From Eutreptiella sp. 'Long Island Sound 2002' (Eukaryota > Protista > Euglenida), in assembly GCA_964036045.1 (NCBI GenBank), contig OZ038378.1:145700001-145764000 (forward strand): a stretch of DNA of 64,000 nt, read 5' to 3'. A program made the translations under genes and the position numbers. Below, piece after piece: positions 12,998-36,300 of this stretch. Within the stretch, counting starts at the first letter, position 1; every line of letters starts with the position of its first letter. The notes under the pieces were generated by a model. That model made no database searches. It was not told where the DNA came from and worked only from the letters and a program-made list of their open reading frames with translations.

Positions 12998-13192
12998 CAG
13001 TAACCCCCCCCGTTTGGGTCAGTAAGGGTTACTGACCTTGGGTCAGTAACCCCCTTACTGAGCAGTAACCCCCCTTACTGAACCCCCCTTACTGACTCCG
13101 TAACCCCCTTACTGACTCAGTACCCCCCCCTTACTGACTCAGTAACCCCCCCCTTACTGACTCAGTAACCCCCTTACTGACCCCCCTTACTA
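12998..13192. repeat. Internal block of CAGTAA-C5-TTACTG palindromic units (element 1, block 1)
   Basis: Tandem cagtaacccccttactga units related to the TIR. Confidence 0.9.
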
Positions 13193-13330
13193 AGTTTTGC
13201 GCTGTGTCCTTCCTGCACACTTTTGTTCTCCTTTTAGACTTTTTGTGGCCCCGGAGTGCCATGGCTTGTGCTGGGCTGCTGGCTGCCTTCCCGCCCGTCC
13301 TAACGTGGGTCAACCATGTCAATAACCTAG

Positions 13331-14167
13331 TTGGGACACGCGGGTACGGGGGGGGGGATGGGCACGGCGTGGGGCGGAGGCGGTGGGCAAGGAAGTGTGT
13401 GGTGTGGTGTCGTGCAGGCGGAAGGTGGGTGGGTCGAGTGCGCGGTGTTTCAGGTGCAAGCAAGCGTTGTTGTGTGGGACACACAAGGGTGTGTTGTGCG
13501 CGGACTTGGGCAAATCCGTGGCGTGGGCGGGCCGGCAACGGGGCTTGCAGAAACTGCGCAGCAAGCGTGGCTTGAGGAGCAGCACCGCATGGGGCCCTCC
13601 GGGAGGGGGATCAAGCGAGAGGCGCCCGAGGATGAGCAGCCCCCCTCCCCTGCTGGACAGTCGAAGACCTCGTCCCAGTCCTCCTCCCCCCCGTCCCAAG
13701 GGAAGGACAAGAGGAAGAGGCAGGGGCAGCAGAGGAACGTCGAGGGCGGGCGGGGGGGGGGGGCTCCTCAAGTTGGGGACGGGTTGACGGTGTCGGAGCT
13801 CCGTGCGGTTGTCGGGCGTGCTGTCTCCGAGTCGGTCAGTGAGGTAGTCCCAGAGGACACACAAGACGCAATGAGCGCGCTTGTGGGACTACCGGACCGC
13901 CCCGAGAGGATCGTGAAGGAGGCCGCCAAGGGTAAGGCGTCCAAAGCAGAGGCGGACCTGGCCGCAATGCGGCAAGTGACCGCTCAGCAGAAAGGTAGGA
14001 TCGTGGAGTTGGAAGCGCAAGTGCGCACGCTCCAAGAGGCGGTCCAAGCCGAAAAGCAGAAGACCGCCGAAGAACGCTCGGCACGAGAAAAGGCAGAGAC
14101 AGAGGCACAGGTGGTAGCAATGCACAAGAATGAGTTGTTGCAGGTGATCGGACAAGGGAAGAAGTAG
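13331..14167 (+). CDS. Accessory ORF of element 1: low-complexity region + coiled coil; probable Cys-rich N-terminus in another frame
   Basis: 278-aa frame with heptad-rich AMRQVTAQQKGRIVELEAQVRTLQEAVQAEKQK; overlapping frame 13383 gives CGVVSC..CFRC..LCGTH..C. Confidence 0.55.
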   Translation: MGHAGTGGGMGTAWGGGGGQGSVWCGVVQAEGGWVECAVFQVQASVVVWDTQGCVVRGLGQIRGVGGPATGLAETAQQAWLEEQHRMGPSGRGIKREAPEDEQPPSPAGQSKTSSQSSSPPSQGKDKRKRQGQQRNVEGGRGGGAPQVGDGLTVSELRAVVGRAVSESVSEVVPEDTQDAMSALVGLPDRPERIVKEAAKGKASKAEADLAAMRQVTAQQKGRIVELEAQVRTLQEAVQAEKQKTAEERSAREKAETEAQVVAMHKNELLQVIGQGKK

Positions 14168-14210
14168 TGAAGCATGCAGGTGCACGCGTCGTTGGGCGTG
14201 CGACTGATCG

Positions 14211-14440
14211 CATGAATGGATGGGTGGTTGCACGCGTGAATGGGCGCGTGAATGGGCGCGTGAATGGGTGCGTGAATGGGCGCGTGAATGGGTGCGTGAA
14301 TGGGCTCCCGAACGGATGGGTCATTAGACACGTGAATGGGCGCGTCAATGGGTGCGTGAAAGGGCTCATGAAGGGATGGGTCATTGGATGCGTGATTGGG
14401 CGCGTGAATGGGCTCATGAATGGGTGCGTGATCGGGTGCC
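14211..14440 (+). repeat. 12-bp tandem repeat (gtgaatgggcgc)n
   Basis: Directly visible array. Confidence 0.9.
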
Positions 14441-14685
14441 TAAAGGCACGTCGAATTCCTTTTCTGAGCAATGACAATGTGGTTGGCGCAGTGATGATGT
14501 GTTTCATGAGAGGTCCACCGATATCAACAATCTTTCCAACTCTTGTGACTTGAGGGTGCAGACAATGTCCTTTTGTGTTGTGCAACGCTTTGCTAGTGTC
14601 CATGGCATGGGCATACCATCTAAAAGAGTGAAACCACATTCAACCCCTAGGAAAACAGTTGCCTCGGTACACCACTTTCTAGGTC

Positions 14686-14782
14686 AGTAAGGGGGGTCAG
14701 TAAGGGGGTTACTGACTCAGTAAGGAGGTCAGTAAGGGGGGGGTTACTGAGTCAGTAACCCCCTTACTGATCCCCCTTACTG
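14686..14782. repeat. Internal CAGTAA-G5-TTACTG block 2, just upstream of the transposase
   Basis: Same unit as 12998-13192. Confidence 0.9.
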
Positions 14783-14792
14783 CCCCCAATTG

Positions 14793-16497
14793 ATGAGTAG
14801 AGACCAACGCAACAAGGATGCCGTTTTCCTAAGGCACTTCTTGCGTTGTGCCTTGGTCTTGGGGTCTTTGAGGGCTTCCAGTGGTGTAAGGGTGAGACGT
14901 TGTAGGTGCGCCTCAAACGTATCCACCGCCGCTTCCATTATAAAAAGCTGTGCACGCGTGGCAAGCGCCCTGCTAGGCACCATCGGCCACGCGCTGCGAC
15001 GTCTACGTCCACGTGTGGGGTGCCCCGAGTCGAGCCAGCGATGTAAGGAGGTGGGCCACATGGTGGGCCCTTGATGGTCGTGACGATGGACGATGCCTCC
15101 GTGCCGTCGACCGGCTTGCCGGCCTAGACAGGGAAGTTGAAGACCTTGAGCAGGATAGGGATATAATGTGGGGGGGTACAAGGTACACTTTTGAGGTGTT
15201 TGTCACCGGGGATGGAAAGCTGATGTTAGTCAGTAACCGTGGCGACAAGTGTTGGTGTTGTGGCAATGTGGAAAGCATGGTTCCCACCGTTTTTGTCGAG
15301 GCCCTGTGCCGTTGGGGCTCTTTTCTTCTTTTCTTTTCAATATTTTTTGAACATGATTAGCAGTTTTAATGAAGTACTGAATTTTTGGAACCTTCGGGAT
15401 CGAGTTCTGCAGAGGTGCTTTCTGACTGGCCTACCATGCGTACTGTAGGTGCATGCCAGCATTGGTGGTCAATGGTTAACTGTGTGATTGAATGTTTGTC
15501 TACTAACGTGGACATGTGCTATGTTGAGCGAGTCTTTGGAACAGCGAAAGGTGTGAGGTTCGAATTGGCATGAGTTATGCACGGGGCTATGGTAAACAAT
15601 GATTCGTTTTGAAGATTTGTGACCGACTATCCCAATGTGTCTTTCACGCTGGTTTCAGCCTATAATGCATTTGTGAGCAGCTGTTCTTGTGCACCGTTTC
15701 TCGCCGTGCTTGCCACCTCCGTCCCACCAAGGCGGCGCATTGGTGATTATAATCATTGTGCCTGCCGTGTTTTAAATGCCATTGTGACACGGGTGGGTTG
15801 GATGGTTGAGGATTGGGTAGCAGCCGACCACAGCAAGCGTGGTGCTGTGAAGGAGTTACAGGAACTCCATCAGCATGTACAAGCTGAGGCAGAGGCAATC
15901 CCACCTGCTGAACGCTTGCAGCAGAAACAAACAAAGGACGGAAAGTTTAGTCTGACCTCTAGTGCCTTGTTCTGGAGGAATCACCAAACACCAGACAAGT
16001 TGGTTGTGATCTTGTGTAGCCACTTTGAGCGTGAGGTGGTCGGGGAGAGAGGAATGCATACCCATGTCCTCATTAAGCTATTGTTGCGGTCTTTCGCAGG
16101 TATGTATAGTCTGTGGAGGGAAAAGGAGTACCTCACCCCCACTCAAGTTGCCCAAGCTCAGGCACATGCCCGTCAGTTTGGCGAGTGTTGGAGTGCCTTG
16201 GGGTGGAAGCCCACACCGTGGGCCCATTGGGCCGCGTGTCACAGTGGCAAAATTTTGGGGATGTATAGGTCTTTGTACCTGTTCTCTAGCATCCCCATTG
16301 AGTACCGCAACCGGACCTTCAAAGTCCGGTTGAAAAACAGTATGAGAGGTTGGTGCTTGAAGAAGCCGCGAGTGACGAGGCGTGGTATGGCCCATGTGGT
16401 CAACACGGATGCACTCGCGGTGGATGTACAATTGCGCAAAGCCAAGGGAGGACAAGGGGAGGCTTTGTTGGCACGCAAACGACGAAGGGCTGAGTGA
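14793..16497 (+). pseudogene. CMC/Transib/RAG1-like DDE transposase (disrupted)
   Basis: FEVFVTGDGK, CWCC, IGDYNHCACRV, TPWAHWAACH and FSSIPIEYRNRTFK occur in the order of RAG1 YDEK, CTLC, LHCD, TNYFHKTLAH, SEGNESGNK; stops, frameshifts and a ~370-bp interruption near 15320-15690. Confidence 0.75.
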
Positions 16498-16550
16498 TAC
16501 ATTTGATACTTGCCTGATTTCTTCATGCCCTAGTGTTGCTACGGTTAAAA

Positions 16551-16720
16551 CACAGTAAGGGGGGTCAGTAAGGGGGTTACTGACTCAGTAAGGGGGGTCA
16601 GTAAGGGGGGGTTACTGAGTGAGTAAGGGGGTTACTAAGTCACTAAGGGGGTCAGTAACCCCCCTTACTGAGTTGGGTTACTGCGGTAGTAAGGGTGTCA
16701 GTAAGGGGGGTTACTGAGTT
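16551..16720. repeat. Internal CAGTAA-G5-TTACTG block 3, downstream of the transposase
   Basis: Starts cacagtaagggggg, like the TIR. Confidence 0.9.
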
Positions 16721-17681
16721 TTGGGGGGGTTTCGCGAAATCGACACACCATGGAGTTCCGGGTAAACGAAGTTATACACCTCTAGAGTGGACATAGGGAA
16801 GTGTGTTGGACCACCCAGGGTGGAGAAAAACAACCGGGACACATGTTTGGGAGGGGGGGCAAAGTCAAACTCGAGAAGGGGGGGTTACTATGCACCCCCT
16901 TACTGTGTTACACCCAAACGGTCTTGTCCGGTCCAGATTTTTGTGTGAAGTGTGACTTTTGTGTGAAAGGTTGGGTCAGGGGTATTTGCATGTGGCGCAT
17001 CTTTTGGTTTTGGTGTTTTTTGATGATTCCATGAAGGTCAAGAGTTTTGCATGTAGACCATTTTGGCAGACCACAATTAAGACCGGTCTAGAGTGGTCTT
17101 TGTACCAACTAGAACGAACAGTTTGCGCAGCTTACCACACTTCACTCAACATGCACATACGACACACATACAGATCGTGCACACACATACCACCTACTCC
17201 ACACGTTGTAAGGATGATTCCCTAAGGTTCCCAGGGTATTGGAACACGGTATCATTGCATGATGGGCATGTAAATGTAGAATAATTGTGACAGATTAACC
17301 TTATGCAGTTTGTCCAGAGACTGGTCTGCACCGGTTTGGACCGGTCTTCTGATAAACTGAAACGAACCGCGCGGTCTGACCACTCGGTCTTTACGTTGCA
17401 GTTTATGGCGGGGTAGGTGTTTTGCACTCTCTTTGCTTTGCCATGCTTGTGTATGCATGCTCCCCAAAGGACTTTAGGCCACTGTGACGGTTTAATATGC
17501 CTTCCTGTGCAGCAAATGCAGGAAGCGCATTTCACACAGTTCGTACAAAGACTGGTCGGGACCGGTCTGGACCGGTGTCCATTTAAACTGAAACGACCGG
17601 TTCGTGCAGCTTGTGCACTTTGTGCCGTTTTCCATTTTTCAAGATGTTTTTCCACCTTTTTCCTTTAGTTTCTTCCTTGCC

Positions 17682-18020
17682 ATGCCTGTGGAAGGTCCCA
17701 GCCAAGCCCTCCCCCATGCCACCAAGGATGATAAGGTGGTCCCCCAGTCCTTCAAGAACATTGAGAGAGGTCAATGGGTAGTTTTCTTGAAGAAGGATTC
17801 GCACGGGGCACGTTATAGTGGGTTGGTGTCAAAGGTGGACAAAGGGAAGGTGACCCTTACAAACACAAAGGAGTACACCGAAGACAAAAACGGAAATGTG
17901 AAACGGCAACAAAACAAGGGTGATGTGGTGTTTGAGGCCGAAACGGTGGTAGGGAGTTGGATCATTCAAAAGGGTGCCAAGGCAAAGTCCGCCAAGGAAC
18001 GGGTGCAACAACGGGCTTAG
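17682..18020 (+). CDS. Small Sm/LSm-fold-like protein (112 aa)
   Basis: GQWVVFLKKDSHGARYSGLVSKVDKGKVTLTNTKEY..GDVVFEAETVVG resembles Sm1/Sm2 motifs as in the LSm14 N-terminus; ATG to TAG intact. Confidence 0.45.
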   Translation: MPVEGPSQALPHATKDDKVVPQSFKNIERGQWVVFLKKDSHGARYSGLVSKVDKGKVTLTNTKEYTEDKNGNVKRQQNKGDVVFEAETVVGSWIIQKGAKAKSAKERVQQRA

Positions 18021-18416
18021 GGGAGTCGGGCGGAGAGGTCCTAGAGGGCGTGTTCCGGTCAGTGGGGGGGAGGGGGGGGGGGGGGGGGGGCTCTAGCCGC
18101 CCAGCCACCCGGCTGCCCAGCCGCCCGGCCACCCGGCCACCCAGCCACCTAGCCACCCAGTGTAACTACGAAGACAGTGAAGTTTCGCTAAAACGCGGTA
18201 AATTGCGGCAAATCAAGGCAAAAATTGAGAACCCCACTTACTGCCCTCCTCCCACTTGTACCCCTATTCCACAATGTTTTTGGAACAAAAACCAAGCATC
18301 CTTGCTTTTGAATCACCCAAAACGCTGCCGCCATCACCCCACGGCAGCGTTTTTCGTGTCCGGTCGTTCTCTCTTCACCCACAGTCAAAACGGGGGCTTT
18401 CCCTGATTTTACCTCA

Positions 18417-18560
18417 TTTTGACACGCGCTAAAACTAGTTTTGACGCGCGCTAAAACAGGTTTTGATGTGCCATATACCTACTTTTGTCCTAGGTTTGCA
18501 ACCCTGCATTGCAAGCTAAAACTGGTTTTGACGTGCGCTAAAACTAGTTTTGTCTTAAGC
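18417..18560. repeat. TTTTGACG(T/C)GCGCTAAAA repeat block (element 2, block D)
   Basis: Directly visible; same orientation as the other three blocks. Confidence 0.9.
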
Positions 18561-18667
18561 TAAATCATGGTTAAATGCAACCGTAGCCCTTCCTTGGGTA
18601 CATACACACATGTACATGATCATGCACGCTGAGGCACATGGCACGAGCACAACAACAATCTGTCTTC

Positions 18668-20467
18668 TCATTTCTGTACCCCCTTCAAGTGCTTCCAAGC
18701 ACTTTTGTTCTTCAGGTATGCCTCTTGCTTGGTCCACGCCGGTTCCCACACATTAAACCCCTTATTTAACAAACTATAGTCCATATTGTCGTTTCGGATG
18801 AGTTCACCCCAACTCTTGCGCACTCCCCTGAGCCTGCTCCCCTTCCCTCCCCCCTTGAAAGACCTGTTTCTGACCTCCTGCTTCAGCGCCTTGTGTCTCC
18901 CCTCTGCCTTGAACCCCGCCGTCAGGCTCAAATCCCCGTACAAACCTGCCACCTCAACCATGTGGTCTACCCACAAGTGGGGCCACAAACTAATACTAAG
19001 TCCTAAAGCCCTGTGCACTGCCCCCATCACCTTCAGGTCAGCCCTCAACTCATTCACCTTGGTCGCTGTCAAGAAACCCTTTTCCCATACCAGGTTAGCG
19101 GTCCTTCCCATGCAAAAGCACCCCCCACTGCCTGAACCCCTCCCCCCATGGCACGCGCACACCGTTATGCACAATGTCGTGTTGCAAAAGGTTGCTGTTT
19201 TGGAGCTCGTCGGCAATGCACTCCCATCCCTGAGCCTTAATCCATTCCCCTGCCGCAGTCTGTTCAATGTGCACTCCCTCCCTATCCTCCCCAACCACAT
19301 CCTGCGCGGTCACTGTTCGAGCTTGGATTCTTATGGGGTCCAGGTAGAACTGGACCCACTCCGACGCTCTTTTTTCCGTAAACGCATGTTGGTCACGTAA
19401 TGCATTGTAAAGCCCTGTGCACCCGCAACACACCATGCGGTGTGCCCCATGCAGCCCGTACTCCGGTGGCCTCTGTTTAGGCTTCACCGCACTCAACACC
19501 ACCCCTATGTGTTCCCACTCATCCTTAATTCTTCCATGTCCACTGCCAAATTGGTTCACACACACCTCATGACTCCTCCCACACAACCAACACACAACCG
19601 CCAAGGGGTGGGCAGTGGTCCACCCCTTGCACGCGCTCAACGCCACATGCCCCTTCCCATCGGCTATGATCTCAAACTCAACGCTACACTCGAAGCCGTT
19701 ACTATCTATGTACGTTGTTTGTTGTACGTCTTTTATCTCATCGTTCAATTCGGCCACCGCACTCAACCGCTGCAAGACACTCTTTTTCTCCGGACCATGC
19801 ACGAACACCCACGAACCGTAGGGTAATGAGCTTCGCACATCCCCCACGCTGAAGTGCAAGAAGCTCCGATTGTGGCTCCGCGTGCCATCGATCGCGATCA
19901 CCACCAAAACTTTTCCACGATGCAATTGTGGTGCCCGAGTGGCCCACATTACCTGCGTAACAAAAGGAAAACGCACTGCGTGCACCTCATGGGTGTTTAT
20001 TGAGCGACGCAGTGCACTTCGAGCACCCCCCACACCTCCAATTTTTGTTTTAACGACGTTTTGCACCCCCGCACTTGGGCACGAAGCAGACGGGACCCTT
20101 GCAACGTCTCCGTCTCCAAGCTGAGTTCCGTGACCTGGGGCACACTTAACGCACGCCTCTGCGAAAGCACTGTTGCCATGGGCGTGCACCAAACGGACGT
20201 TGTGAAACCATACTGGAGCTGGCGCAGGGAAAGTCCTTGCCGCCGCATGTCCCACAATGCAGCCTGCACACAAAGTTCAGGCCCGGCATGAGGTTCGGCA
20301 GCTGCTGCATGACATATCAATTCAAGCGAACGGCGTTGCCGGGGCACCAGCCGCACATCCCAGTCCTCCCCCAATATAGCGTGCACCTGCACACGCAGAG
20401 CCCTTAGGCGCTCACGGCGGGTGGTATGGTTGCGGGATCCCAACTCATGATACTGCAAGTATGCCAT
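18668..20467 (-). pseudogene. CMC/Transib/RAG1-like DDE transposase (~600 aa, two frameshifts)
   Basis: VVIAIDGT (D1), EFEIIADGKGH (D2-x-K), CWLCG, YGLHGAHR, SLWPHLWVDH (HxxxxH), GFKAEGRHKALK (E); pieces in ORFs 19997-20626, 19095-20273 and 18668-19300. Confidence 0.85.
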
Positions 20468-20519
20468 GGCAGTCTGCGTGGCACAAAGGACAATTGGAGT
20501 GTGTGTTTTGCGGGTTTGC

Positions 20520-20715
20520 CGTGTTTTGACGCACGCTAAAGCGTGCTTTGACGTACGCCAAAGCGCGTTTTGACGTGCGCTAAAGCGTGTTTTGGCGTCA
20601 GGTAACGTGTGTTTGACATGCGCCAACGTGTGTCTTGACGTGCGCTAAAGCGTGTTTTGACGTGCGCTAAAGCGTGTTTTGACGTGCGCTAAAGCACGTT
20701 TTGGCGCGCGCTAAA
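20520..20715. repeat. TTTTGACGTGCGCTAAA repeat block C, upstream of the transposase
   Basis: About 8 units. Confidence 0.9.
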
Positions 20716-20726
20716 ATGCGGTAAGA

Positions 20727-21182
20727 TTAGGCGAACAAACTTGCGGCCCTCATCTGTGCCCACACTGGTCCTTGAATCCAGAGGTAGTGCCTTCCCCCCT
20801 TCCCTCCCGAATGACACGAAAATGTAACGACCGCTGGGCGGTCGCCGTCCGTCCACCAGATTTCCCACAAAACATTACATAGGTGCATCCCCGGCGGCTT
20901 CTCCCATGGATGGCCGTTTGCATTGAGGCGCTGATGGGCTTCACCGTTGGTCCGCGTCGCAATGTCGTTTGCGGCAACTGACAGATACTCTGCCGCATCA
21001 GCGCGGCTGGGCGGCTCACTGATCCACAGCCTGACCCCGTTTGGGGCAACTTCCTTTTGGCAGGTGCGGAAAGCAACACGGTGTCGTAGCCGGGCTTCAA
21101 TCACGGCGCTGCGAGCTGCTCGTTCCTGCTCCTTGTGCTCCGACCGTGTGTGGGTTCTCTTCTTCTTCCCCATGACAAACAA
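20727..21182 (-). CDS. Element 2 small ORF, unknown function (151 aa)
   Basis: Intact frame, basic NLS-like start MGKKKR, co-oriented with the other element genes. Confidence 0.45.
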   Translation of the reverse strand: MFVMGKKKRTHTRSEHKEQERAARSAVIEARLRHRVAFRTCQKEVAPNGVRLWISEPPSRADAAEYLSVAANDIATRTNGEAHQRLNANGHPWEKPPGMHLCNVLWEIWWTDGDRPAVVTFSCHSGGKGGRHYLWIQGPVWAQMRAASLFA

Positions 21183-21286
21183 AGCTGTGGAGAGAGTGCG
21201 GCAATGGGGGGCACATCACGGCCATCGGGCCAGACAGACACCCCCACTACTGCCAACAACTCTCTTACGCCTCACCTTGACTACTA

Positions 21287-22522
21287 TTAACCCCCCCCCC
21301 CCCGGACGATACTTTCGACACTGTACTTCTCCAGCAGTTTGTTGTGTTGCTCTACCGCAACAGGGGGCGCCGCCTGACCCTTCTCCTTTCCCAACGTGTC
21401 AATCAGCCATGAGGTACATTGCAGAGCCGTCACTGCGCTCGTCAAAGATCCATGCAATGCGCCCGCGGCTTCTCGGAGGTATCGCGTCGACCCCGCGCTG
21501 TCCCCCTCGTCACTGACACCTGCCACGGGCGCACTCCCGGCCTGTGGCTTTGGGGCTTTCAGGAGCCGGTCCTGCAAAGACTTGCGCTCTGTTTCCCATT
21601 TGGCTTCCCTCGCACGCCATTGGTCTTCACGTGTCTTGCTTGCTGCCTCGAGGCGCTTCAGCTCCGCTGCATGCGACTGCTGCAGTTGATCCACCTCGCG
21701 CTTATGCGCCTCGCGCATCTGGTCCAGCAAACCCGGTGCCACGTCCTCAGCTTGGCCCGCTCGTACTGGTGGGGGCTTGGCCTTCTTCTTGTTCAATGTG
21801 AGCGGGACTCCCACTCTCCGGCGCTTTTCGCGCCCCCCAAGTGACTGCCCGCCGTCTGACTGCTCAGCTTCCGACTGCTCGCCGGTCGATTTCTCCTCAA
21901 TGTCCACGTCGATGGTCTTACGCAGCAGTCGGTCCTCCCGCTCACGGTGCTAGCGGACCCTGAAGGCATGCGCGCATGCTTCTGCCGTCGCTTGGCAAGC
22001 GTGGCCGTCCAGGGAGCACACCACGTTACACGCGAGCACATGTGACCACTCAAAGCATCGCCTCCTCTGCAGCTGCCCCAAGGTATCAAAGAAGCAACCC
22101 ACAAGGTACACATGCGTTGATCTCTGTCTCGTATACATCAACGGGACAAGCAAGGTCTCCTCCCCCTTCCGTGACGCCACCAGCACCCAAAATGGGCAAG
22201 TCACCGTGAATGAGTCCATGTTGCTGCGAAGCCCGCAGGTGATGATCATTTTCTCAGCAACCAGGCCATCCGCATCGGTAATCTCCACCGCAGTTTTGTC
22301 GAGCGTGGCCTCCTTCTTGAATTGCCGACGCTCCATGAAGTCAATGTCAGGCGTGCAAATGGTCGTGGGATCCATCGGGTCTGCGTCGCCCTTAGACTCC
22401 GCATCGTCTCCGACCGGTGCACCTTCGCCTGCGGGTGACGATGTCAACGGCGGTGCAATTACTAGCTGGCTGCTTGGCGTCAGCTTTGGGTCCTCCAGCG
22501 CGCCGTAGGACAAGGGGTTCAC
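21287..22522 (-). pseudogene. Element 2 accessory ORF (~410 aa): beta-rich N-domain + coiled coil, one internal TAG
   Basis: ORFs 21950-22522 and 21287-21907 are in the same frame, separated by a single stop; coiled coil DQMREAHKREVDQLQQSHAAELKRLE. Confidence 0.55.
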
Positions 22523-22582
22523 GGCCGCAACTGGAAGATGAACCTACAAGAACGTGGAACATGTTTCCACTTGCGTTACCGC

Positions 22583-22790
22583 ATTTTGACGCGCGCTAAA
22601 GCCAGTTTTGACGTGCGCTAAAACCTGCTTTGACGTGTGTTGAAAGCGGTGTACTACAAAGCAAAGCGCATTTTGACGTACGTTAAAGCACGCTTTGACG
22701 TGCGCTAAATCGCGTTTTGACGTACGCGAGACACGTTTTGACGTGCGCTAAAACAAGGAATGACGCGCGCTAAAACAAGGAATGACGCGC
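22583..22790. repeat. TTTTGACGTGCGCTAAA repeat block B
   Basis: About 7 units between ORFs. Confidence 0.9.
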
Positions 22791-24743
22791 GCCAGAACAC
22801 GGTAAACGGTAGGTGCACACCTGGTACTGACAGTTGCACACCCACGTGTCCACCTTCCACTGGGCGGCGTTGCGGAGGTTGTCGACAAGGGTCAGGGCTC
22901 CCCAGTAGTGGGCCATCTGCGAATAGGACATCACTTCGAAGGTCGGTTGTTTCGTGAAACCCCAGGCTGCCGGCACGAAGGCAAACGCAACGTCGCCCAT
23001 TTGCAAATTGAGTCGCGGCACCCTCGCATTGCTAACGGCTGGGGCCCACCATCGATGCACCCAAGGTGTTGAACAGTTTGGTACATCGTCCTCGCCATCG
23101 GGCGCAATGTCCGTGTACTGCACCCCCTTTACCGCCAGCCACATGTTGTAGTCTGCAATGTGCCAACAGAGATGCATGACGTCGCCCATATACTGCCATG
23201 GCACCGGCACGTGCGCGCACTCGCCCATGTCGAACTCCCTCTCGTGTGGTGTCGGTAGTGGAGGCTGCTTGCACGCCATCTCCATGACCTCGGGACCCTC
23301 CACGCACGGCAGAACCTTGCGCACCCCATGCGGCAAAAATGTAAAGACCAGGTACCTGCTCTTACCACCACCAAAGCGCACGAACAAAGGCCCGTTCATG
23401 AGCAGGGCATCCCCAAGTTTCATCGGCAGCGTGTGCATCTTGTTCGCTGTGTGCTGTCCACGATGTGACCCAACCTGCACCTGCAGAGCTTGCGCAGCCT
23501 CAACGTCCTGAAGGGGGACAATGACCATGTGCGTCAAGTGGGCGTACGCGCGGGACCAGTGGTGCATGCGGTGAAGTAGCTCGTATCCTGCCCAATCCTC
23601 CGGATTGGTGTCCTCTGGCCGGGTATACAAAACCGTCCCCAAGGTGTCGCTGTCCTTCAGGAAGACCCACTGCTCGTAGATGGCGGTGTACAAGGCGTTG
23701 TGGAGCGGCAAAGGAAACCAAGTCACCGCGTCCCGCTGGGTTTGCAGTCGCACCCCCGGATAACCAGCACCATGGACAGGCCACACCTCCAACGTCTGCC
23801 GTTCCGGGTTGACAATGTTCTGCAGTTGCTCGTGGATCTCCGGGGGGAAGAGGGCCTGCATGAGGTGGTAGCCAGCGACATCGTAGTTGTTCCAACTTTG
23901 GTTTGGAGCGGCCGGAACCTCCATGGACAGTTCAGGTGGGTTGGTGGAGATTGCTGGACCAGGGGAACCCATCGGAACGTACACCCGGCTGGCCGTTGTT
24001 TCCCACTTTGTGGGATGGGTCACATCCGGCACAATGTGCTCCAGCTGCGCCGCCGCAACTGCAACCATGGGCCCCTGGCCGACCCACTCTTGGCCTTTGC
24101 AGGCCTTATACCTGAGCGGCACATCTGCCGTTGTGGGTTTGGTGACTTTCGCTTTCCGCTGCAAATAGCTGCAGAGCGGCCTATCCACCGGGTCAGTGTC
24201 CCATTGATTTTTTGAAATGTCGTGTGTGGCCCAGCATTCGGTCTGCGGCCCGTTGCCACAGCCAATGGAGACGAGGCGGTGGATCATATCGGAATCCGCC
24301 CGACACATCCTGATGACAACCGCAACCACCTTTGAACCCAACAGCCTGTGGGTTGTGTGAGCGACCGTTGTGAGCGACCCTGGGGTGAGAGGCAAACGGA
24401 CACATGTGGCATCGTACACCACTGCTACATGCACCACACCGTCCTTCTCCGAAGCCATCAAAAGGTTTTCAATCCGCACGGACAGTTGTGGCCACTGGTT
24501 CACATCCCCATCTTCCAACTTCACAACCTCCTTTGTAAATCCTTCCGGGGTCACCTCCAACAGGGGCTCCGCAAGCACCTCCATGGTGCGGACCACACCC
24601 GCCGGCCCCTCCGGCACAACCGGCCCAGCCTCATTGTCGTCATCGGACGATGAGTCGTTGGCGCCCGCGGTGGGCAGGTTGATTTTGGCCTGCTTCCCCC
24701 CCTTTGGTGCTGCCTTCTTTGGCTTCCCCTTCTTCTAGGGCAT
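22770..24743 (-). pseudogene. Element 2 cargo ORF (~657 aa) with a PhyH/2OG-Fe(II) dioxygenase-like fold; TAG at codon 3
   Basis: Reads MP*KKGKPKK.. in frame with the 615-aa ORF; YDVAGYHLMQALFPPE and VPLQDV..LQVQVGSHR..LPMKLGDALLMNGPL..GGGKSRYLVFTF match the PhyH-family pattern. Confidence 0.65.
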
Positions 24744-24784
24744 CCAGAAGACTATAAAAAGGAAGGAGAACAGCAAAAAGCGCA

Positions 24785-24908
24785 TTTTGACGTGCGCTAT
24801 TCCTCGTTTTGACGTGCGCTAAAACTAGTTTTGTCTTAAGCTGCATTGCACTACAGTACAAGCTAAAACTGGTTTTGACGCGCGCTAAAACTAGTTTTGA
24901 CGTGCGAC
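24785..24908. repeat. TTTTGACGTGCGCTAAAA repeat block A
   Basis: Shares aaaactagttttgtcttaagct with block D. Confidence 0.9.
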
Positions 24909-25169
24909 AAACGAAGGCAAACGGAGCAAACACGGCACAAGACAAAAGTTGACGGGGACCCAGGTTTGACGTAAGACGACCCAACCTGTTACCGGAAAAA
25001 GCATGGATTTAGCCTCATTTTACATCAATTTGGCATGGTTTTGTCCTACCACCACCCAAACACATGGAGGGACATGGCAAACACCGTTTAACCAAGTTTG
25101 ACCTCAATTTACCGCTTTTTACCGCGTTTTAGCGAAACTTCACTTTATCCATTTGTCTTCGTAGTTACA

Positions 25170-25390
25170 AGCCACCTAGCCAGCCACCTTGCCACCTAGC
25201 CACCTAGCCGTGTAGCCACCATATTGGGTTGGGCCTTGCATTTTTGCATTTTGCCTCTTTGCCTTTGCTCTCAACATCAGATCACATCACATCACTCTAG
25301 CCATCCGGCCACCCAGCCGCCCAGCCACGCAGCCACCTAGCTAGCCGCCCGGCCACCCATCCACCCAACCACCTAGCCACCTAGCCACCA
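25170..25390 (+). repeat. (agccacc[c/t])n array, continuing 18095-18160 across element 2
   Basis: Directly visible on both flanks of element 2. Confidence 0.85.
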
Positions 25391-25838
25391 TATTGTGTTG
25401 GGCCTTGCATTTTGCCCTCAAGATCACTGATGATGATGATGTGTCCAACACCAAAAAAATTTTCAACGTAAAACTTTTTGTAAAACTTTTTTTCCAACAC
25501 AACAATTTTTGTGTTCAGGAATTTTGTGTTCAAAATTTTTGTGTTGAAAAAAATTTTGTGTTGAAAAAAAAACTTTGTGTTGAAAAGAGGCCACACAACC
25601 TAGTGGCCCCAAATGCACGAGCATACATAGCCACAAGTCAAAAGGGGATGGCTTGCACCCCTAGGGACCCCAAGTGTGGCCGTTTTTCTTCATTTTCGTT
25701 GATTTTGGCCAAATTTCCCCCCAGCCATTTCTGGCCAGCCGTGGCCAGCCACGGGGGGGGGGGGGGGAGGGGAGGGGGGGGTCAACCCACCCAGCCGCGG
25801 CTAGCCGCGGCTAGGAACACCCCCAGAGGGCATTCAAT

Positions 25839-26561
25839 GTGGACAAGCATGATGAGGAGGATGGAGACGAGGAGGAGGAGGACGAAGAGGAGGAGGAGGG
25901 TGCCAACGAGGGGTCGATCGTAGAGGAGGAGCCGTTGGAGGAGGAGGAGGAAGAGGAGAAACCCAAGAAACACGACAAGGGCAAGGGAAGGCGCAAGAAA
26001 ACGTTGCAACAAGAGTTTTTCCAGGAGCCAGACAGCGGGGAAGAGGAGGGGAATCCGAGGCGGGAGGCAAAGAGGCGGCGCAAGGCCTCATAGGAGGAGG
26101 ACGCCAACCTCATGGACAGGGAGGTGGTTCGGGTCAACAACGGGTTGGAACAATACGGGGTATCAATAGACTCGGTGGGGACCCATGTCAAGTTGTGTCT
26201 CAGGAGCAACGTGCATGCTAAGCAGCAACCAGCTGTGCTTGCAGCATCGGGAGGAGCACCGGTTCCCAAAGTGGTGGCAGGCCTTGAGGTCAGGTTAGGG
26301 CTGTGCATGGCATCCACCAATGCGTTCACCTCGTGCAAAGCGTTGAAACTTTGTGCGGCGGGGGAAACCATGCACAGTTGGCAGTGGCGCCTCATGCGGT
26401 ACGTCTTTCTAACCCGAAAAATTGCAGTGCAGGCAAAGCACCTCCCTATCCGTGCCAACCGTGGTACGTGCGTGTGCTATCAGGGCGGCGCATCGACGTA
26501 CAAATGCCAAGCTTGTGGCGTTTCGTTGCACGTTGATTGCTTTGCGGAGTACCATCAGTAG
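25839..26561 (+). pseudogene. piggyBac-like transposase remnant: acidic N-terminus + C-terminal Cys-rich domain
   Basis: HLPIRANRGTCVCY..STYKCQACGVSLHVDCFAEYHQ* matches the piggyBac C-terminal Cys-rich domain; in-frame TAG at 26091-26093; DDD core absent; no TTAA-bounded TIR found. Confidence 0.65.
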
Positions 26562-26736
26562 GGCTGAAGGGCGTTCATATGGCATGGGGGGAAGTGCCCC
26601 ATTGCGAAGCTCCCGCCGTAAAATAGAGCTAACGACCCCGAATGCGGCCACCCCTCGACCGCCCTGGCTGGGAATGGAAGGCATTGGTATGTGGCACAAA
26701 CAGACACACACGTGCAGACACACAAACACACGTACA

Positions 26737-26737
<1 letters not shown>

Positions 26738-26779
<42 letters not shown>
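26738..26779 (+). repeat. (AC)n microsatellite
   Basis: Directly visible. Confidence 0.95.
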
Positions 26780-26786
<7 letters not shown>

Positions 26787-28240
26787 ATACACTATGAAGT
26801 GGAATGAACTCCGCAAACTGATCGGACCGCTCGGTTTAAGGGGTTTTATGCGATTTGCACAAAAACCACACCAGACCGGCCAGACCGGACAAGACCGGTC
26901 CTCCGTGTTCCCGCACGAACTGCACAAACTGCCCGGTCTGCATAAACTGCATAAACTGCGTAAACCGGCGTAAACTAGAAGTTTTGCCAGAATAAACTGG
27001 GTGAAACGGAAAGACCGGGTAGACCGGGAGACCGGACTTTGAAATGCGTACGTGTAGCCAAAGGAATATATGGTCCAGTGGGGGTCAGAAACCACCCACA
27101 CCCCCACACCCCCGCTGCTTAAGTGAATCTGGGTGTCCCCGCAGCCTCAAGGCACCCCCCACCCCCCTGCCCTGCCGCCCCCCGCATTTCAAGGAGCCTT
27201 GTGTATCTTCCTCTCTTTGCTGCTGCCTGGCTGCATGTGTTGGGGGGAGCACACCCATGGGGTGGTGTCCTGTCGTGGGCTGGGGTGGGGTGGGGTGGGG
27301 CAAGGTAGGATTTCGTGGACTCCTTGGACCTCGTGACCCACACAAACTTTCGAAATTCGTCTGCAAGAGGTGGGGCGGTTCCCAGCAGCCGCTCTGGCGC
27401 TGTACTTTCGTGATTAGGGACACTTCCGTTACAGTCCCCCTCACCTTCCGTTACACTTCCATTGCATTTCCATTACACCCCTGTTACATCTCCTTTGCAT
27501 CTCCTGTACAGCAGCCACCAGGCATGCCACTAGTGTTTGGCAGGCAAACTGGTGCTCAGTAGCGATCGGCGCTGTACAAAGGGCCAATCAGTAATACCCA
27601 CCCACCCCCTGCACCACCAGAATTCAGTAGGAACGTGCTGCGTCCACCCTGCTCCATCTGATCATGTCTCAGCTGGCAGACGCCATTCGCAAGTCTCATA
27701 TTGCCGAATTCACATGCAGGACCAGAGGACAGACATTTGTATTGGATGACACCCCTGCGCACATGCATGCATTTGTTTGCCTGGCCCTTTCCCTGTTGTT
27801 ATATATTACATTTGTACCCCCCTTCCCCCGAGCTGCACACCCTACTGCCAGGGGTGTGACATAGTCATGCGGTGCAGACATACACAGGGTTACGTGGTAC
27901 AGGGTACAGGGTACAGAATGTTGACAGCATACCACGACCTCCAAGTCCCTGGCGGCTTGTTTGCCACCATGTTGGTCCGCACATGCATTCTGGCATGCTG
28001 TGCGGTGTTTATGTAGTGGCTTTGCTAATCAGAGGGCTTTGGTGCGGCATGTTGTAGGCTGTCTCTGACCAGCACTAGAGCATGTGTTGCCACTGAAGGG
28101 GAGAGGGTGAGTTCCCTGCCAATGGAATAGCTGTATCCTGCACGTTCCCCAGGCGCCAGAAACTGTGGCTGAAAGAAGGCATGCAACTTCTGTGGAACCA
28201 CGCTGAAAGGCCCAGAAACAATTTGCTCCAATCACTAAAG

Positions 28241-30345: not shown

Positions 30346-33300
30346 GTGCGGCAGGTCGCACGTGCTCTGTGCATTGGTTCGGCCCGCGGCAATCGGCAGT
30401 ACAAGTGCTGCTAGCACACAATGAGAGTATCCCCCCCCCCCTCCAGGGATGCGCTCGAGGGGAAAGGTGCCCCAAGAGGGTTTCGAGAGCGGTTGTAAAG
30501 GCGGTTACTGACGATTGGAACAGCGGTTGGGAGGCGCGGTCTGGCGGGTGCAAAGCAGTTGGAGGGCCGTTTGGGGCGGACGGACGTGACCGGCAGGGCA
30601 GACCGTCATGGCAGAGGGGGGGGGGGGTACCTCCCCCCATTCAAGCGCAAGCCTGCCCCCCCCCCCCCCCCAGTGCAAAGTCCCCCAGGGGGCAGGGGGG
30701 CGTCAATGGCCCCAAAAGTCTACGGCCGAAGAAAATCTTTCCTCCGTAAGAATGGCGTTGTAGTCGAAAGGTGCGGTTGGGGTCCTCTCATCCCCCCCCC
30801 CCCCCGCAGGGCGGGGGGCGTTATTTGGTGACCGTTCATCCCGGGGGGTGGGGTGGGGTGGGAGACCAGGGAGTGTCCATGGGGGCGGGGGGCTATGCCC
30901 ACATTTGGTCACACAAACCTGATCCCCTTTGCCTGCACCGCCGACACACAGTCTTGTCGATGTGTCCAACCCGCGCTCCCGGTCAAGACACACCCTGCGA
31001 CTGCACCGGCGGTTCTGACCCCAACGGGGGGGGATGGAGGGGGCTGGGATGCACCCTGCTGGCCGGGGTGGCCGTGGTGATAGGGTGGTGTGTCCCATAG
31101 CGCCTCGTCACCCCCGCCATCCATTCTGGTCGGCTGGCTTCATATGGGCGGCCCCGCCGGGGGGTTGGGGATTGCGGTCCGCAATTGTGCGTGATGCCGC
31201 GATTCATGCTTCAATTCCGTGGTCATGTTGCGGGCCGGCGCAAGCTTCCGCAACTTTCTGCAATTGTTCCGCAATTTTGCGCAATTATTCGGCTATTTTC
31301 CGCAATTGTTCGGCAATTGTCCGCAATTGTTTTGCAATTTTCTGCAATTATTCGGCGATTTTCCGCAATTGGTCGGCAATTTTCCGCATTTGTTCAGCAA
31401 TTTCCCACAATCGTTCTGCAATTTTCCGCAATTGTTCGGCGATTTCCCACAAATTTCTGGCAATTTTCCGCAATTGTTCGGCAATTTTCCGCAACTGTTC
31501 GGCAATTTTCCGCATTTGTTCGGCAATTTCCCGCAAATTTCTGGCAATTTTCCGCAATCGTTCGGGATCTTTCCGCCAGTGGTTGGCAATTTTCCGCAAT
31601 TTTTCAGCAATTTCCCGCAACTGTTCGGCAATTCCCCCCAAATTTCTGGCAATTTTCCGCAATCGTTCGGCACTTTTCCGCAATTCTTCGGCAATTTCCC
31701 GCAATTGTTCCGCTGTTTTCCGCAATTGTTCGGCAATGTCCCGCAAATTTCTGGCAATTTCCCGCAATTGTTCGGCAATTGTCCGCAATTGTTCGGCAAT
31801 TTTTCGCAATTGTTCGGCAATTTCCCGCAATTGGTGGGCAATTTTCCGCATTTCTTCAGCAATTTCCCGCAATTGTGCGGCAATTTCCGCAATTGATTTG
31901 CAATTTCCCCCAATTTTCTGCCATCTTTCTGCAATTGTTCGGCAAAGTCCCGCAATTGTGCGGAAGTTTTCCGCAATTGTTCAGCAATTTCCCGCAGTTG
32001 TCTTGCAACTTTGCGCAATTGTTCGGCAGTTTCGCCAAATTTCTGGCAAATTTCCGCAATCGTTCAGGAATTTTCCGCAATTGATCGGCAATTTTCCGCA
32101 ATTCTTCTGCAATTTCCTGCAATTGTGCAGCAATTTTTCGCAAATTTCTGGCAATTTGTGCAATTCTTCGGCAAATTTCCGCAATTTTTCAGCATCCTTT
32201 CGCAACTGTTTGGCAATTTTCTGCAATTGTTCGGCATTTTTCCGCAATTGTCCAGCAGTTTCCTACAATTTCCTGGCAATTTTCCCGAATTCTTCGGCAA
32301 TTTTTCGCAATTATTCGGCAATTGTTCCGCAATTGTTCCGCAATTTTCCGCAACTATTCGCAATTTTTCGCAACTGTTCGGCAGTTTCCTACAAATGTCT
32401 GGCAATTTCCCGCAATTCGTCGACAATTTTTCGCACTTGTTCGGCAATTTCCCGCAACTGTTCGGCGATTTCTTGCAAATTTCTGGCAATTTTCCGCTAT
32501 TGTTTGGCATATTCACGCATTTGTTCGGCCATTTCCCGCAAATTTGTGGCAATTTTGCGCCATTGTTTGACATTTTCCCGCAAATTTTCCGCAATTATTC
32601 GGTACTTTCCCGCTTATGTTTGGCAAGTTTCCGCAATTGTGCGGCAATTTTACTGAACTGTGCCGCAGTTCTCCGCGATTGTCCGGCAATTTGGCGCAAT
32701 TGTTCGGCAACATTCCGCAATTGGTTGGCAATTTTCCGCAAAGTTCTGCCAATTTTTCGCAATTGTTCGGCAGTTTCCCACAAATTTCTCGCAATTTTCC
32801 GCAATTGTTCGGCAATTTTGGGCAATTGTTCGGCAACTTTCCGCAATTGTTCGGCAACATTCCCCAATTTTTCGGCAAATTTCCGCAATTGGTCGGCAAC
32901 GTTCCGCAATTAGTCGGCAATATTCCGCATTTCTTCAGCAATTTCCCTCAAAGTTCTGCCAATTTTTGGCAATTGTTCGGCAGTTTCCCGCAAATTTCTG
33001 GCAATTTTCCGCAGTTGTTTGCAATTTCCCGCAATTGTTCGGCAATTTCCCTCAAATTTTCTGGCAATTTTCCGCAATTGTTCGGCAATTTTCGGCAATT
33101 GCTCAACATTTTTTTGCAATTGTTCGGCAATTTTCTGCAACTGTTCTGCAATTTTCCGCATTTGTTCGGCAATTTTCCGCAAATTTTCTGGTAATCGTTC
33201 GGCAATTTTCGGTAATTGCTCGGCAATTTTCCGCAATTGTTCGACAATTTTCTGCAGCTGTTCTGCAATTTTCCGCATTTGTTCGGCAATTTTCCGCAAT

Positions 33301-36300
33301 TGGTTGGCAATATCCCACAATTCTTCAGCAATTTCCCTTAAAGTTCTGCCATTTTTTCGCAATTGTTCGGCAGTTTCCGCAAATTTCTGGCAATTTTCCG
33401 CAACTGTTCTGCAATTTTCCGCATTTATTTGGCAACTTCCCGCAAATTTTCTGGCAATTTTCCGCAATTGTTCGGCAATTTTCGGCAATTGCTCGGCAAT
33501 TTTTCGCAATTGTTCGGCAATTTTCCGCAACTGTTCTGCAATTTTCCGCAATTGTTCGGCAATTTTCCGCAATTGGTCGGCAATATTCCGCAATTCTTCA
33601 GCAATTTCCCTTAAAGTTCTGCCATTTTTTCGCCATTGTTCGACAGTTTCCCACAATTTTCTGGCAATTTTCCGCAACTGTTCTGCAATTTTCCGTATTT
33701 GTTCGGCAATTCCCCCAAAATTTCTCGCACTTTTCCGCAATTGTGCGGCAATTTTCGGCAATTGCTCTGCAATTTTTTGCAATCGTTCCGCAATTTTCCG
33801 CAATTGTTCCCCAATTTTCCGCAACTGTTCGGCAATTTCCCGCAATTCTTCGGCAATTTTCTGCACCTTTCTGGCAAATCACCTCGAAGAGGTTTGTTAG
33901 ATCAAGCGCAGGTGCATCCGCCATATACCCTCCTTTTTTGGGGCCATTCGCATAGGATACCCCAAGGTATGGTACCGGATGTTCAACCCCTTGTAAAATC
34001 ATCATTTTAGGAGAGAAAATGATCCCCCAATGAATTTTTCGATTTTGACCCCTTCCCCCCCCCCCCCCCCGAACCCAGGTACCCCTTTTTGGAGGGGTAG
34101 TGTGGGTCGGGGGGGGGGGGGGGGGCTCAAAACTACTTTGCGTATTGAGGCCACTGTGTGTGGATTTGGAACCAGGTCCGGGGCGACTTTTCTCTTGTAC
34201 ATGGACCCCCTAATCCATGGCGGGGGTCCCGGGTCCGAACTCCGGGTACCCCCGGTCACCCCCCCCCCCCCCCGCTCTGGGCCCTTACCGGTGAGGACTT
34301 TCGCCGTTTTCACGCTGGATAAGGCTGTTTTAGTGACACCTGCAAGGTTTCCAAAATTCGACTTTTTCCGAAACCCTTCTGTCGCCCCTAAGATCGGTTT
34401 GGGTGATGATTTAGTGACAATACAGGTACTTGAGCACCCATGGGGACCCACGTAGTGGCCGCTAGGCCCATATAGCCCGAGCCATGGCCCCCCAAAAGCC
34501 CCAAAATTTGGGTTGTGTAGGCTGTTTAGTGACGCCTGCAAGATTTCCAAAAATTTACTTTTCCCGAAACCCTTGTGTCGCCCCTAAGATCGGTTTGGGT
34601 GATGATCTAGTGACAATACAGGTATTTGAGCACCCATGGGGACCCACGTCGTGGCCGCTAGGCCCATATAGCCCGAGCCATGGACTCTTCAAGTTGCCTT
34701 GCCGATAGGCAATAGAATTTTCGACAACTTTCCGCAAATTTTCCCGCGCTTTCCCGCAAATTTTCCGCAACTTTCTGCAATTGTTGAGCATCTTTTTGCA
34801 GTTCTTCCGCAAGTTCCCGCAACTTTTCTTCAACTTCCCGCAATTTTTCTGCAAGTGGATTGGATGCTCCCTGACCGCAACCTGCCAGCCCCCCCCCCCC
34901 CCCGGGCGTTGGAGGGAGGGTCCTCCACCTCCTCCACCTCTCCTCCGTACCACACGCCCACAGGTCTGGCACGCGGCACTGAATCGCACAGCGGAGTACC
35001 TCCAGCGGTACCATGACGTCGTAGCCATGAGGTTCCAGACGTGCATGGTGTGCTTCTGCGAGGAGGGGGGCACCGTCCCTATCCCGCCCCCGCCGCTGCC
35101 CTGCGTCAGCACGCTGGACTGCCCGTACCCGCACCACTTCCTGCACGCGGCCTTGGGCCTCTATGACTCCCCTTTCCGCAACGCCTTGATCGTGACCATC
35201 GACGGGGGCGACCCCTTCGGCAATGAAGGTGCTGTTCCGGTGCGTGCGGCCCGACCCAAGGGGGAGGGATTCCGACCCTTTGGGAGGGGCAGACTCTTCT
35301 GCAGTGCACCTGCGGCGGGAGGGGGGGGGGGGCTTTGGGACTCTTTAAGCGGGGCGCACTGTGCGCTGTGCGTGCGCTGTGCCTGCGCTGTGCAAAACGT
35401 AGGCTTTTTTGGACCCATTTCCCCCGATGGCCAAGGTGACCGCAGCAATTACCGTGTTCCCATACAGAGGACTGCTCAGATTCTTATTCAGTTCAAAACC
35501 TCAGATATTATTATTGATTATTGATTAAAGAATTAATTTAACAGGAAATTATTAGAGGGAGTACTAGACACAGTGCGCGCGCGGTGCGGGTATTAGAGTT
35601 GTTCGGTAGACCCTTTCAGCCAGTTTAGAGGCAACTGCGTCCATTCGGGAGCCTTTTAATGTTCCCAATCTGCATGTGTGCCGTGTTTTTGCTTCTGCAA
35701 TGTCTTTTGTCATGTCCTCCTGTTTCTAGGCCTATTGGTTGCACAATTTTGTTGCAAAATCCTGCCCCCCTGTGTCCACAGAGCTCTCATGGCTCCATGT
35801 CTCTCTCATGGCTTCAGGCAGGGGTGTCAGTCGTTTACACCCGCTCGGCTGGCAGGAGTGTGGCAGCGATAGTGGTCGCTCCCTGCACGTAAGGTGATGA
35901 GTTCGTGGCCATCCGCTACGAGGTTGACGGCCGGGTGTGCGACCATCTCCGTACACCAGCGCATCGAATCCGCGCGGACGTAGAGGTTTATGTGTTGTTT
36001 GCAGGGATGGCTTAACAAAGACAGTGACAGTCACAGCCACAGTGACAGTCACGTTTGGTTGCCTATTATTCTCTGCTGTTTTTTTTTTGCCTTACTACTA
36101 CGCTACCAGGAAATAATAGCAACTATCCAGAACCCACCAGGAATGAATAGCAACCATCCACAACCCACCAGGAAATGATAGCAACCATCCAGAACCCACC
36201 AGGAAATAATAGCAACCATCCAGAACCCACCAGGAAATAATAGCAACCACCCAGAACCCACCAGGAAATAATAGCAACCATCCAGAACTCACCCGGAAAT

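Follow-up and report, generated by a model that had tools for sequence, protein, structure and literature searches.

A selected, probably non-catalytic PhyH-type cargo protein on a CMCT-clade transposon of Eutreptiella

The window analyzed here is a 64,000-nt stretch of the Eutreptiella sp. 'Long Island Sound 2002' assembly GCA_964036045.1 (contig OZ038378.1, positions 145,700,001 to 145,764,000), and all coordinates below count from its first letter. It contains a whole DNA transposon of 7,009 bp (18161..25169), which is delimited by inverted ends, AG flanks, and contig joints and belongs to the CMCT clade, with PlavakaA-like ends. On the minus strand, the element carries a broken transposase gene (18668..20467), further open reading frames (ORFs), and a cargo gene, ORF1 (22770..24743). 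The product of ORF1 features a predicted PhyH-type domain—a fold of 2-oxoglutarate (2OG) oxygenases—in which two of the three iron ligands are replaced. An earlier note, drawn up from the sequence alone, had proposed a cargo of this kind, and the location of ORF1 inside an element with a CMCT transposase agrees with it.

The ATG of ORF1 at 24743 comes after a pyrimidine tract with AG. Codon 3 is a stop in the window copy, whereas P0011, P0067, and P0091 begin with Met-Pro-Gln and encode Gln there. From 24734 to the stop at 22770 the frame is open over 654 codons (P0001), and the motifs quoted in the earlier note are real: all of them lie in this one minus-strand frame of 654 amino acids. The product consists of a basic and acidic N-terminal stretch, an N-domain, the predicted PhyH-type double-stranded β-helix (23300..23890, minus strand, approximately residues 282–478), and a Cys-rich C-domain (22773..23250, minus strand). 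By tblastn, homology to an intact sister family extends over all three parts (N-, 2OG, and C-domain); hence, the whole gene is common to both. The C-domain features a YxGD, an HRW, and a terminal CxC(x4)C cluster, which also occur in the sister proteins P0102 and P0061, and has no match in Pfam or the PDB. Its YxGD and CxC(x4)C presumably resemble those of SET/post-SET domains; the SET/post-SET reading was set aside, with no support from Pfam or the PDB.

The middle domain of ORF1 is assigned to the PhyH class through its sister families, with moderate confidence. In the ESM Atlas, residues 275–480 retrieve PhyH clusters first at a score of 0.94, with the ten best family-bearing matches all from a single family or clan; among shuffled proteins, 4 to 10 of 100 score as high as 0.9, a calibration that holds for whole proteins and not for parts. 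The AlphaFold model built with 27 rows has a mean predicted local distance difference test score (pLDDT) of 39.7, rising to approximately 55–72 over the strand core (model residues 180–244), and the single-sequence model one of 31.6. The top Foldseek rows for the model are FtmOx1, SptF, TlxIJ, SnoN, and AsqJ, and against viral models an annotated phytanoyl-CoA dioxygenase occupies rank 2 (E 2.6e-3). In VIA-align, 2OG enzymes head the list, among them ColD, KanJ, AsqJ, EasH, PtlH, and human phytanoyl-CoA hydroxylase. The profile comparison by hhalign was carried out against six plasmid proteins, one PF05721 match and five tblastn relatives, which represent one PhyH branch. The whole-family profile aligns to this set with a probability of 86.5% (E 4.6e-6, 168 columns) and a score of 45.8, as against a best score of 22.3 among 100 column shuffles (probability at most 2%). 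For the sister profile, the probability is 80% (E 1.3e-5; at most 7% in 100 column shuffles), and the cyanophage 2OG-FeII_Oxy_3 sets gave at most 18%. The double-stranded β-helix named in the earlier note is borne out as a prediction by these matches. Its link to TET/JBP enzymes or base J was not: there is no Pfam Tet_JBP match, and no TET/JBP protein stands among the listed fold rows of what is a poor model. The positive fold evidence points to PhyH rather than TET/JBP.

Copies of the gene were examined as database proteins and as contigs of sequencing runs. Near copies are numerous, with one cluster of 37 members, 15 of them listed, plus further clusters; besides these, a phmmer search of 1.84 billion representatives yielded distant relatives at 22–40% identity. 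The ligand counts come from 100 collected proteins, in which near-copy rows are those of at least 60% identity. The distant sister rows belong to four lineages; all 8 covering rows read HxD (HRD or HTD), and all 10 covering rows have the distal His (H-R/C/P-G). In the bacterial PhyH set, these ligand columns correspond to HRD and IHRG. Because homologues carry HRD/HTD and H-R/C/P-G in the aligned columns, the ligand positions of the window protein can be assigned. The HxD corresponds to His388-Arg-Met390 (23565..23573, minus strand; His388 at 23573–23571, Met390 at 23567–23565), with the carboxylate replaced by Met, and the distal His and the next Gly correspond to Val and Phe, respectively, in Val452-Arg-Phe454 (23373..23381, minus strand; Val452 at 23381–23379). 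The near copies agree: the carboxylate column holds Met in 31 of 31 covering rows and an acidic residue in none, the first ligand column holds His in 25 of 27, and the distal column holds Val (26), Met (2), or Leu (1), with His in 0 of 29. As judged by these alignments, two of the three iron ligands are gone in every copy examined, and the first, His388, is retained. The loss described in the earlier note therefore stands for the Asp and the distal His and fails for the first His; its suggestion that other copies of the family hold the active form finds no counterpart, since triads occur only in the sisters. With two defining ligands failing, the ORF1 product is placed outside the active PhyH enzymes.

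In PhyH-class dioxygenases, 2OG is bound by an Arg with which the final strand begins. Arg460 (23355..23357, minus strand) would, by its position, take this role and is shared by 23 of 28 near-copy rows and, among the sisters, by 8 of 9; the PhyH alignment stopped before this column. A still-active enzyme, with a metal site rearranged around His388 and His 391, 392, 399, 402, 424, and 428 or with metal-free chemistry, would fit the His-rich segment, the retention of His388, His428, and Arg460, and the purifying selection described below. However, the carboxylate and the distal His have become hydrophobic and the Gly after the distal His has become Phe, and His428 is also present in sisters with a full triad and is hence not a compensating gain. 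Continued activity is considered improbable.

In a midpoint-rooted tree of 16 rows, from which the other near copies and P0060, P0062, and P0066 were left out, the five ligand-less rows are set apart from four intact lineages by a 100/100 branch of approximately 1.0, and the sister stems measure 0.34–0.48. At 21 domain positions, the window protein agrees with every sister lineage that covers them; differing solely in the window family are the HxD Asp, the distal His, a Trp, and a Gly. As the bacterial PhyH set and all sisters carry the triad, a single loss is the parsimonious reading, and we infer that the ligands were lost once, in the founder of the window family. The sister families, to go by their scattered, broken copies of 80–97% identity within a lineage, would ride on transposons as well. 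Searches of viral, metagenome, and prokaryote contigs, of phages and plasmids, and of three cyanophage genomes gave no relatives.

The intact sisters raise the question of whether the dead domain serves them as a non-catalytic partner or regulator that borrows, steers, or blocks their activity in the same genome, as TlxI does for TlxJ. By their records, an intact gene (P0046) and dead ones (P0077 and P0090) appear to come from a common assembly, PhyH-class fungal enzymes are described as forming catalytic/non-catalytic heterodimers (PMC12141560), and TlxIJ is among the fold matches of the domain. On the other hand, an identity of 25–40% to the sisters and the long branch of the dead family make a preserved interface less likely, and the lesion of TlxI, which has no 2OG Arg and a shorter loop, is unlike a loss of iron ligands (PMC12141560). 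Such a partnership is regarded as unlikely.

Selection on ORF1 was assessed from four runs compared over 23325–23645; the counts refer to the 40 of 59 variant rows listed, which all fall within 23445–23607. Variants present in at least 5 contigs—a threshold of the analysts' choice—comprise 11 synonymous and 4 non-synonymous changes, one of the latter private to the window copy. The expected synonymous share is 0.23–0.28, and the shared class departs from it at p 5e-5 to 4e-4. Variants in fewer than 5 contigs comprise 2 synonymous and 23 non-synonymous changes, and the two classes differ from each other (Fisher p 3.5e-5). Among the rows listed, none of the four runs has a variant at the Met390 codon. 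At the protein level, changes common to at least 4 of 84 near copies have a mean BLOSUM62 score of +0.24 (n = 37), compared with −0.62 for private ones (n = 595; p 7e-4). As far as comparison of copies goes, this shows that the ligand-less gene is under purifying selection. All compared lineages are devoid of the ligands, and selection thus came after their loss. Such a pattern of variants is what a gene would show if selection acted on it in the lineages that transpose and it decayed in the copies once inserted.

These results bear on two further explanations. The first is a neutrally decaying remnant whose ligands are missing through decay, with active copies of the same family elsewhere. 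The window copy, with its early stop and broken transposase, would suit it, as would the fragmentary state of many database copies; against it stand the identical kind of replacement in all 31 and 29 covering rows, the lack of a listed variant at the Met390 codon, and the synonymous-rich shared variants. It is largely refuted and deemed highly improbable: the ORF is found in many copies, whereas an ORF missing from other copies and evolving neutrally would have refuted the earlier note, and the 11:4 ratio of shared variants is in line with that note's proposal of an inactive fold put to new use. The second explanation assigns the work to the N-terminal and the Cys-rich C-terminal domains and leaves the dead domain as a folded spacer that binds nothing. 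Both flanking domains are common to the sister families, selection for folding alone would yield a synonymous excess, and what the domain conserves in common with the sisters is mainly Gly, Pro, Trp, and aliphatic residues. However, His388, Gln418, His428, and Asn431—polar residues with no obvious packing role—are kept in all covering lineages, and Arg460 is kept in most copies. A mere spacer is given a low chance. Ligand loss combined with purifying selection makes a non-catalytic pseudoenzyme likely, and a selected, non-catalytic PhyH-fold transposon cargo is the reading of ORF1 in which we place high confidence.

The transposon around ORF1 ends in a 16-bp perfect terminal inverted repeat beginning with TGT (TGT..ACA), with a further inverted match just inside. 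A 2-bp target duplication, AG, flanks it on the left (18159..18160, plus strand), where the joint overlaps by 2, and on the right (25170..25171, plus strand), AG being present on both flanks. Contigs of the runs X2 and X4 join 18158 to 25170 and skip 7,011 nt, with two ambiguous letters; the sides of these joints measure only 24–26 nt, and the flanks are themselves repeats. Longer skips, from 17366 to 26911 and from 17497 to 26417, also occur in the run contigs; the 7-kb element sits within at least one or two other repeats. Two frame changes, one near 20000 and one near 19110, interrupt the transposase, and other copies carry short deletions at 19109–19112 in the run contigs. The transposase was recognized by its motifs, which follow in the order IDGT (19892), ADGK (19664), CWLC (19592), LH (approximately 19457), HLWVDH (18979), and AEGRH (18907), and by ESM Atlas rows of the RAG1 RNase H, ZnC2, and ZnH2 families (0.91–0.92); a PDB sequence search gave nothing credible. 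The CMCT clade is described as comprising EnSpm, Mirage, Chapaev, Transib, and Plavaka and as defined by C(2)C and H(3–4)H motifs, and PlavakaA as featuring TGT..ACA ends and 2-bp duplications (PMC12730594). The transposase motifs, the terminal inverted repeats, and the 2-bp target duplication, within the 2–5 bp of the clade, place the element in it. Its ends and duplication fit PlavakaA, but the element is not filed as Plavaka.

Between transposase and cargo, the further ORFs of the element (20727..22543, minus strand) run from 22543 to 21950 and from 21949 to 21287, in the same frame across a stop, and from 21215 to 20727, and have no credible family match. A 16-bp imperfect palindrome rich in CpG, TTTGACGYRCGCTAAA, occurs 21 times in the non-coding gaps (18418..24911, plus strand). 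Its copies form four clusters (18418–18542, 20525–20715, 22585–22774, and 24786–24911), two of which flank ORF1, and many copies are spaced at 22 nt. All 21 of the 21 matches in the window fall inside the element, with 0.04 expected from 100 shuffles. The C-terminal tails of P0102 and P0066 repeat a WRA...GARQ-like pattern that resembles translated TTTGACGYRCGCTAAA clusters of the window, a hint that sister genes, too, have short-repeat clusters after them.

The reading preferred here is that the ORF1 product is a pseudoenzyme cargo that would bind its own element, as chromatin or as DNA, and help to keep the element expressed; as a whole, it is given a probability of roughly 0.45. The replaced pocket residues (Met, Val, Phe), the basic N terminus, and the flanking motif clusters are the grounds for the proposed binding. 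Met390, Val452, and Phe454 would turn the metal site into a hydrophobic pocket, and the basic N-terminal stretch would bring the protein to the nucleus. There, it may dock at the TTTGACGYRCGCTAAA clusters on both sides of its gene and shield the element or recruit host factors, with no oxidation taking place. The role itself, binding of its own element against silencing, is put forward tentatively, at somewhat less than even odds. A wider scenario is more speculative and rather doubtful: one genome may harbor several transposon families whose PhyH-class dioxygenases mark or unmark their own elements, with the window family having turned the enzyme into a reader or decoy devoid of iron, by which the marks of its sisters are exploited or blocked, in an arms race of enzyme and pseudoenzyme.

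Several observations weigh against the preferred reading. The fold prediction has a low pLDDT even with 27 rows, no Foldseek match at E ≤ 0.001, and a VIA-align Z of at most 3.7. The ligand-less profile alone aligns to the PhyH set at 2.7%, so that the alignment is reached only via the sisters; the family hidden Markov model does not score above shuffles against a single PhyH sequence. The window protein has no match in Pfam, PHROGs, or NCBIfam, neither it nor its relatives match PF05721 above the Pfam cut-off, and a PDB sequence search with the domain and its profiles gave nothing credible. No DNA-binding domain was identified, the shallow N-domain profile finding nothing credible in the PDB. 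The evidence for selection stems from one 163-bp stretch, from fragmented and non-independent contigs, and from part of the variant rows, and the rare variants, at 2 of 25 synonymous, are more non-synonymous than neutral, an anomaly of the rare class. The transposon setting of the sister genes is deduced solely from their scattered, broken copies. Finally, the window copy itself is damaged in both ORF1 and transposase.

The closest described counterpart is PAG3 of Plavaka elements in the red alga Bostrychia, which has a putative 2OG oxygenase domain and lies beside tandem inverted repeats (10.1101/2025.02.11.637652). This domain was found by remote search only, with 2OPW_A as the best HHpred match (10.1101/2025.02.11.637652). 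Compared by description only, PAG3 and ORF1 are both accessory genes of CMCT/EnSpm-type transposons, and both lie by inverted-repeat arrays—here, the imperfect palindrome clusters on both sides of ORF1—with PAG3 being proposed to bind its own element. 2OPW_A is human PHYHD1, a PhyH-class protein. PAG3 features a ParB-like N-domain, which the shallow profile did not detect in ORF1, and, in contrast to ORF1, is proposed to be catalytic, the passages on it reporting no ligand loss. Its elements measure 17–19 kb and carry a methylase/SET gene, whereas the window element measures 7 kb.

Fungal Plavaka, EnSpm, ESTA, and KDZ elements are reported to carry TET/JBP genes with HxD/E...H kept (PMC12730594). 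The window element resembles them as a CMCT-clade carrier of 2OG dioxygenase cargo with several families per genome, and PlavakaA in its TGT..ACA ends and 2-bp duplication (PMC12730594). The TET-carrying Plavaka, however, are all PlavakaB (PMC12730594), and the cargo domain of the window matches PhyH and has lost its triad. The word 'inactive' does not occur in the main text of that paper (PMC12730594); inactive TET/JBP copies may be described in the original fungal KDZ/Plavaka paper, which lies outside the literature covered.

A dead PhyH protein is known from trypanosomes, where MRB7260/RESC14 organizes an RNA–protein complex (PMC5855954, PMC12936278). RESC14 has the PhyH fold that is predicted for ORF1, is conserved, is devoid of iron and 2OG ligands, and acts in the assembly of a protein–nucleic acid complex; its chain 8fnc_14 stands at VIA-align rank 36 (Z 2.8). 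It differs in being a host mitochondrial gene and not transposon cargo, with no sequence link shown. TlxI/TlxC are similar as fold-matched proteins that have no activity of their own beside active paralogues; they differ in belonging to a biosynthetic cluster, in lacking the 2OG Arg, and in being heterodimers by structure (PMC12141560). VANC of Arabidopsis VANDAL is likewise a transposon-encoded accessory protein with repeats in its own element, its targets often forming tandem repeats there; no homology to ORF1 is shown, and binding and hypomethylation are demonstrated for VANC and proposed for ORF1 (PMC5735166). DIRS1 elements carry likely inactive methyltransferase domains (PMC4738411). None of the compared systems is for certain a model of how the ORF1 product works. 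Among the papers listed, which are mostly open-access, supplements aside, no title or abstract opening describes a ligand-less PhyH-type transposon cargo beside intact sisters.

The rest of the window is repeat-rich, eukaryote-like DNA with hAT and chromodomain ORFs and satellites and is also found in estuary metagenome runs; no RNA run is listed among those that contain it, which has no bearing on expression. A second CMCT-type element lies at 13060–16650, with inverted short-repeat arrays at both ends. Its ORFs at 14977–15360 and 15613–16497 contain GDGK...CWCC and WAHWAACH...EYRN, and its identity to the C-terminal piece of the transposase in the main element is 31% (E 3e-6). Just beyond the left end of the main element, a 142-aa ORF at 17592–18020 (plus strand) has weak Sm-like scores (SM-ATX, LSM14; E approximately 0.16). 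To the right, an ORF at 26094–26561 (plus strand) scores weakly against C1/RING-like Pfam families (E approximately 0.03) and has a Cys/His cluster at its end, which presumably resembles a piggyBac-type C-terminal zinc finger. At 4246–5602 (minus strand), a hAT transposase fragment (Dimer_Tnp_hAT, E 3e-15) adjoins a chromodomain ORF (E 4e-10), possibly forming a chromodomain-bearing hAT element. A candidate host exon with AG and GT borders lies at 34964–35227 (plus strand); it has no Pfam or genome match and is presumed to resemble a NodU/CmcH carbamoyltransferase segment. Two long satellites occupy 31000–33900 and 35980–39300, namely a low-complexity array of short period and a 31-bp repeat in approximately 100 copies. 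At 43183–47262, a 280-nt inverted repeat pair, 95% complementary and 3.5 kb apart, is likely another element.

Transposon-borne 2OG oxygenases are assumed to oxidize silencing marks, and their function is described as not experimentally validated (PMC12730594). A family that has no complete set of iron ligands and is yet selected would mean that such cargo can pay its way without catalysis: the gene was apparently kept under selection after the ligands were lost, and the cargo would be useful in this state. Together, the intact sisters and the dead family would allow active and dead forms to be compared in the search for the substrate of PhyH-class cargo, including PAG3, and the TTTGACGYRCGCTAAA clusters offer a specific candidate for the DNA target of ORF1.
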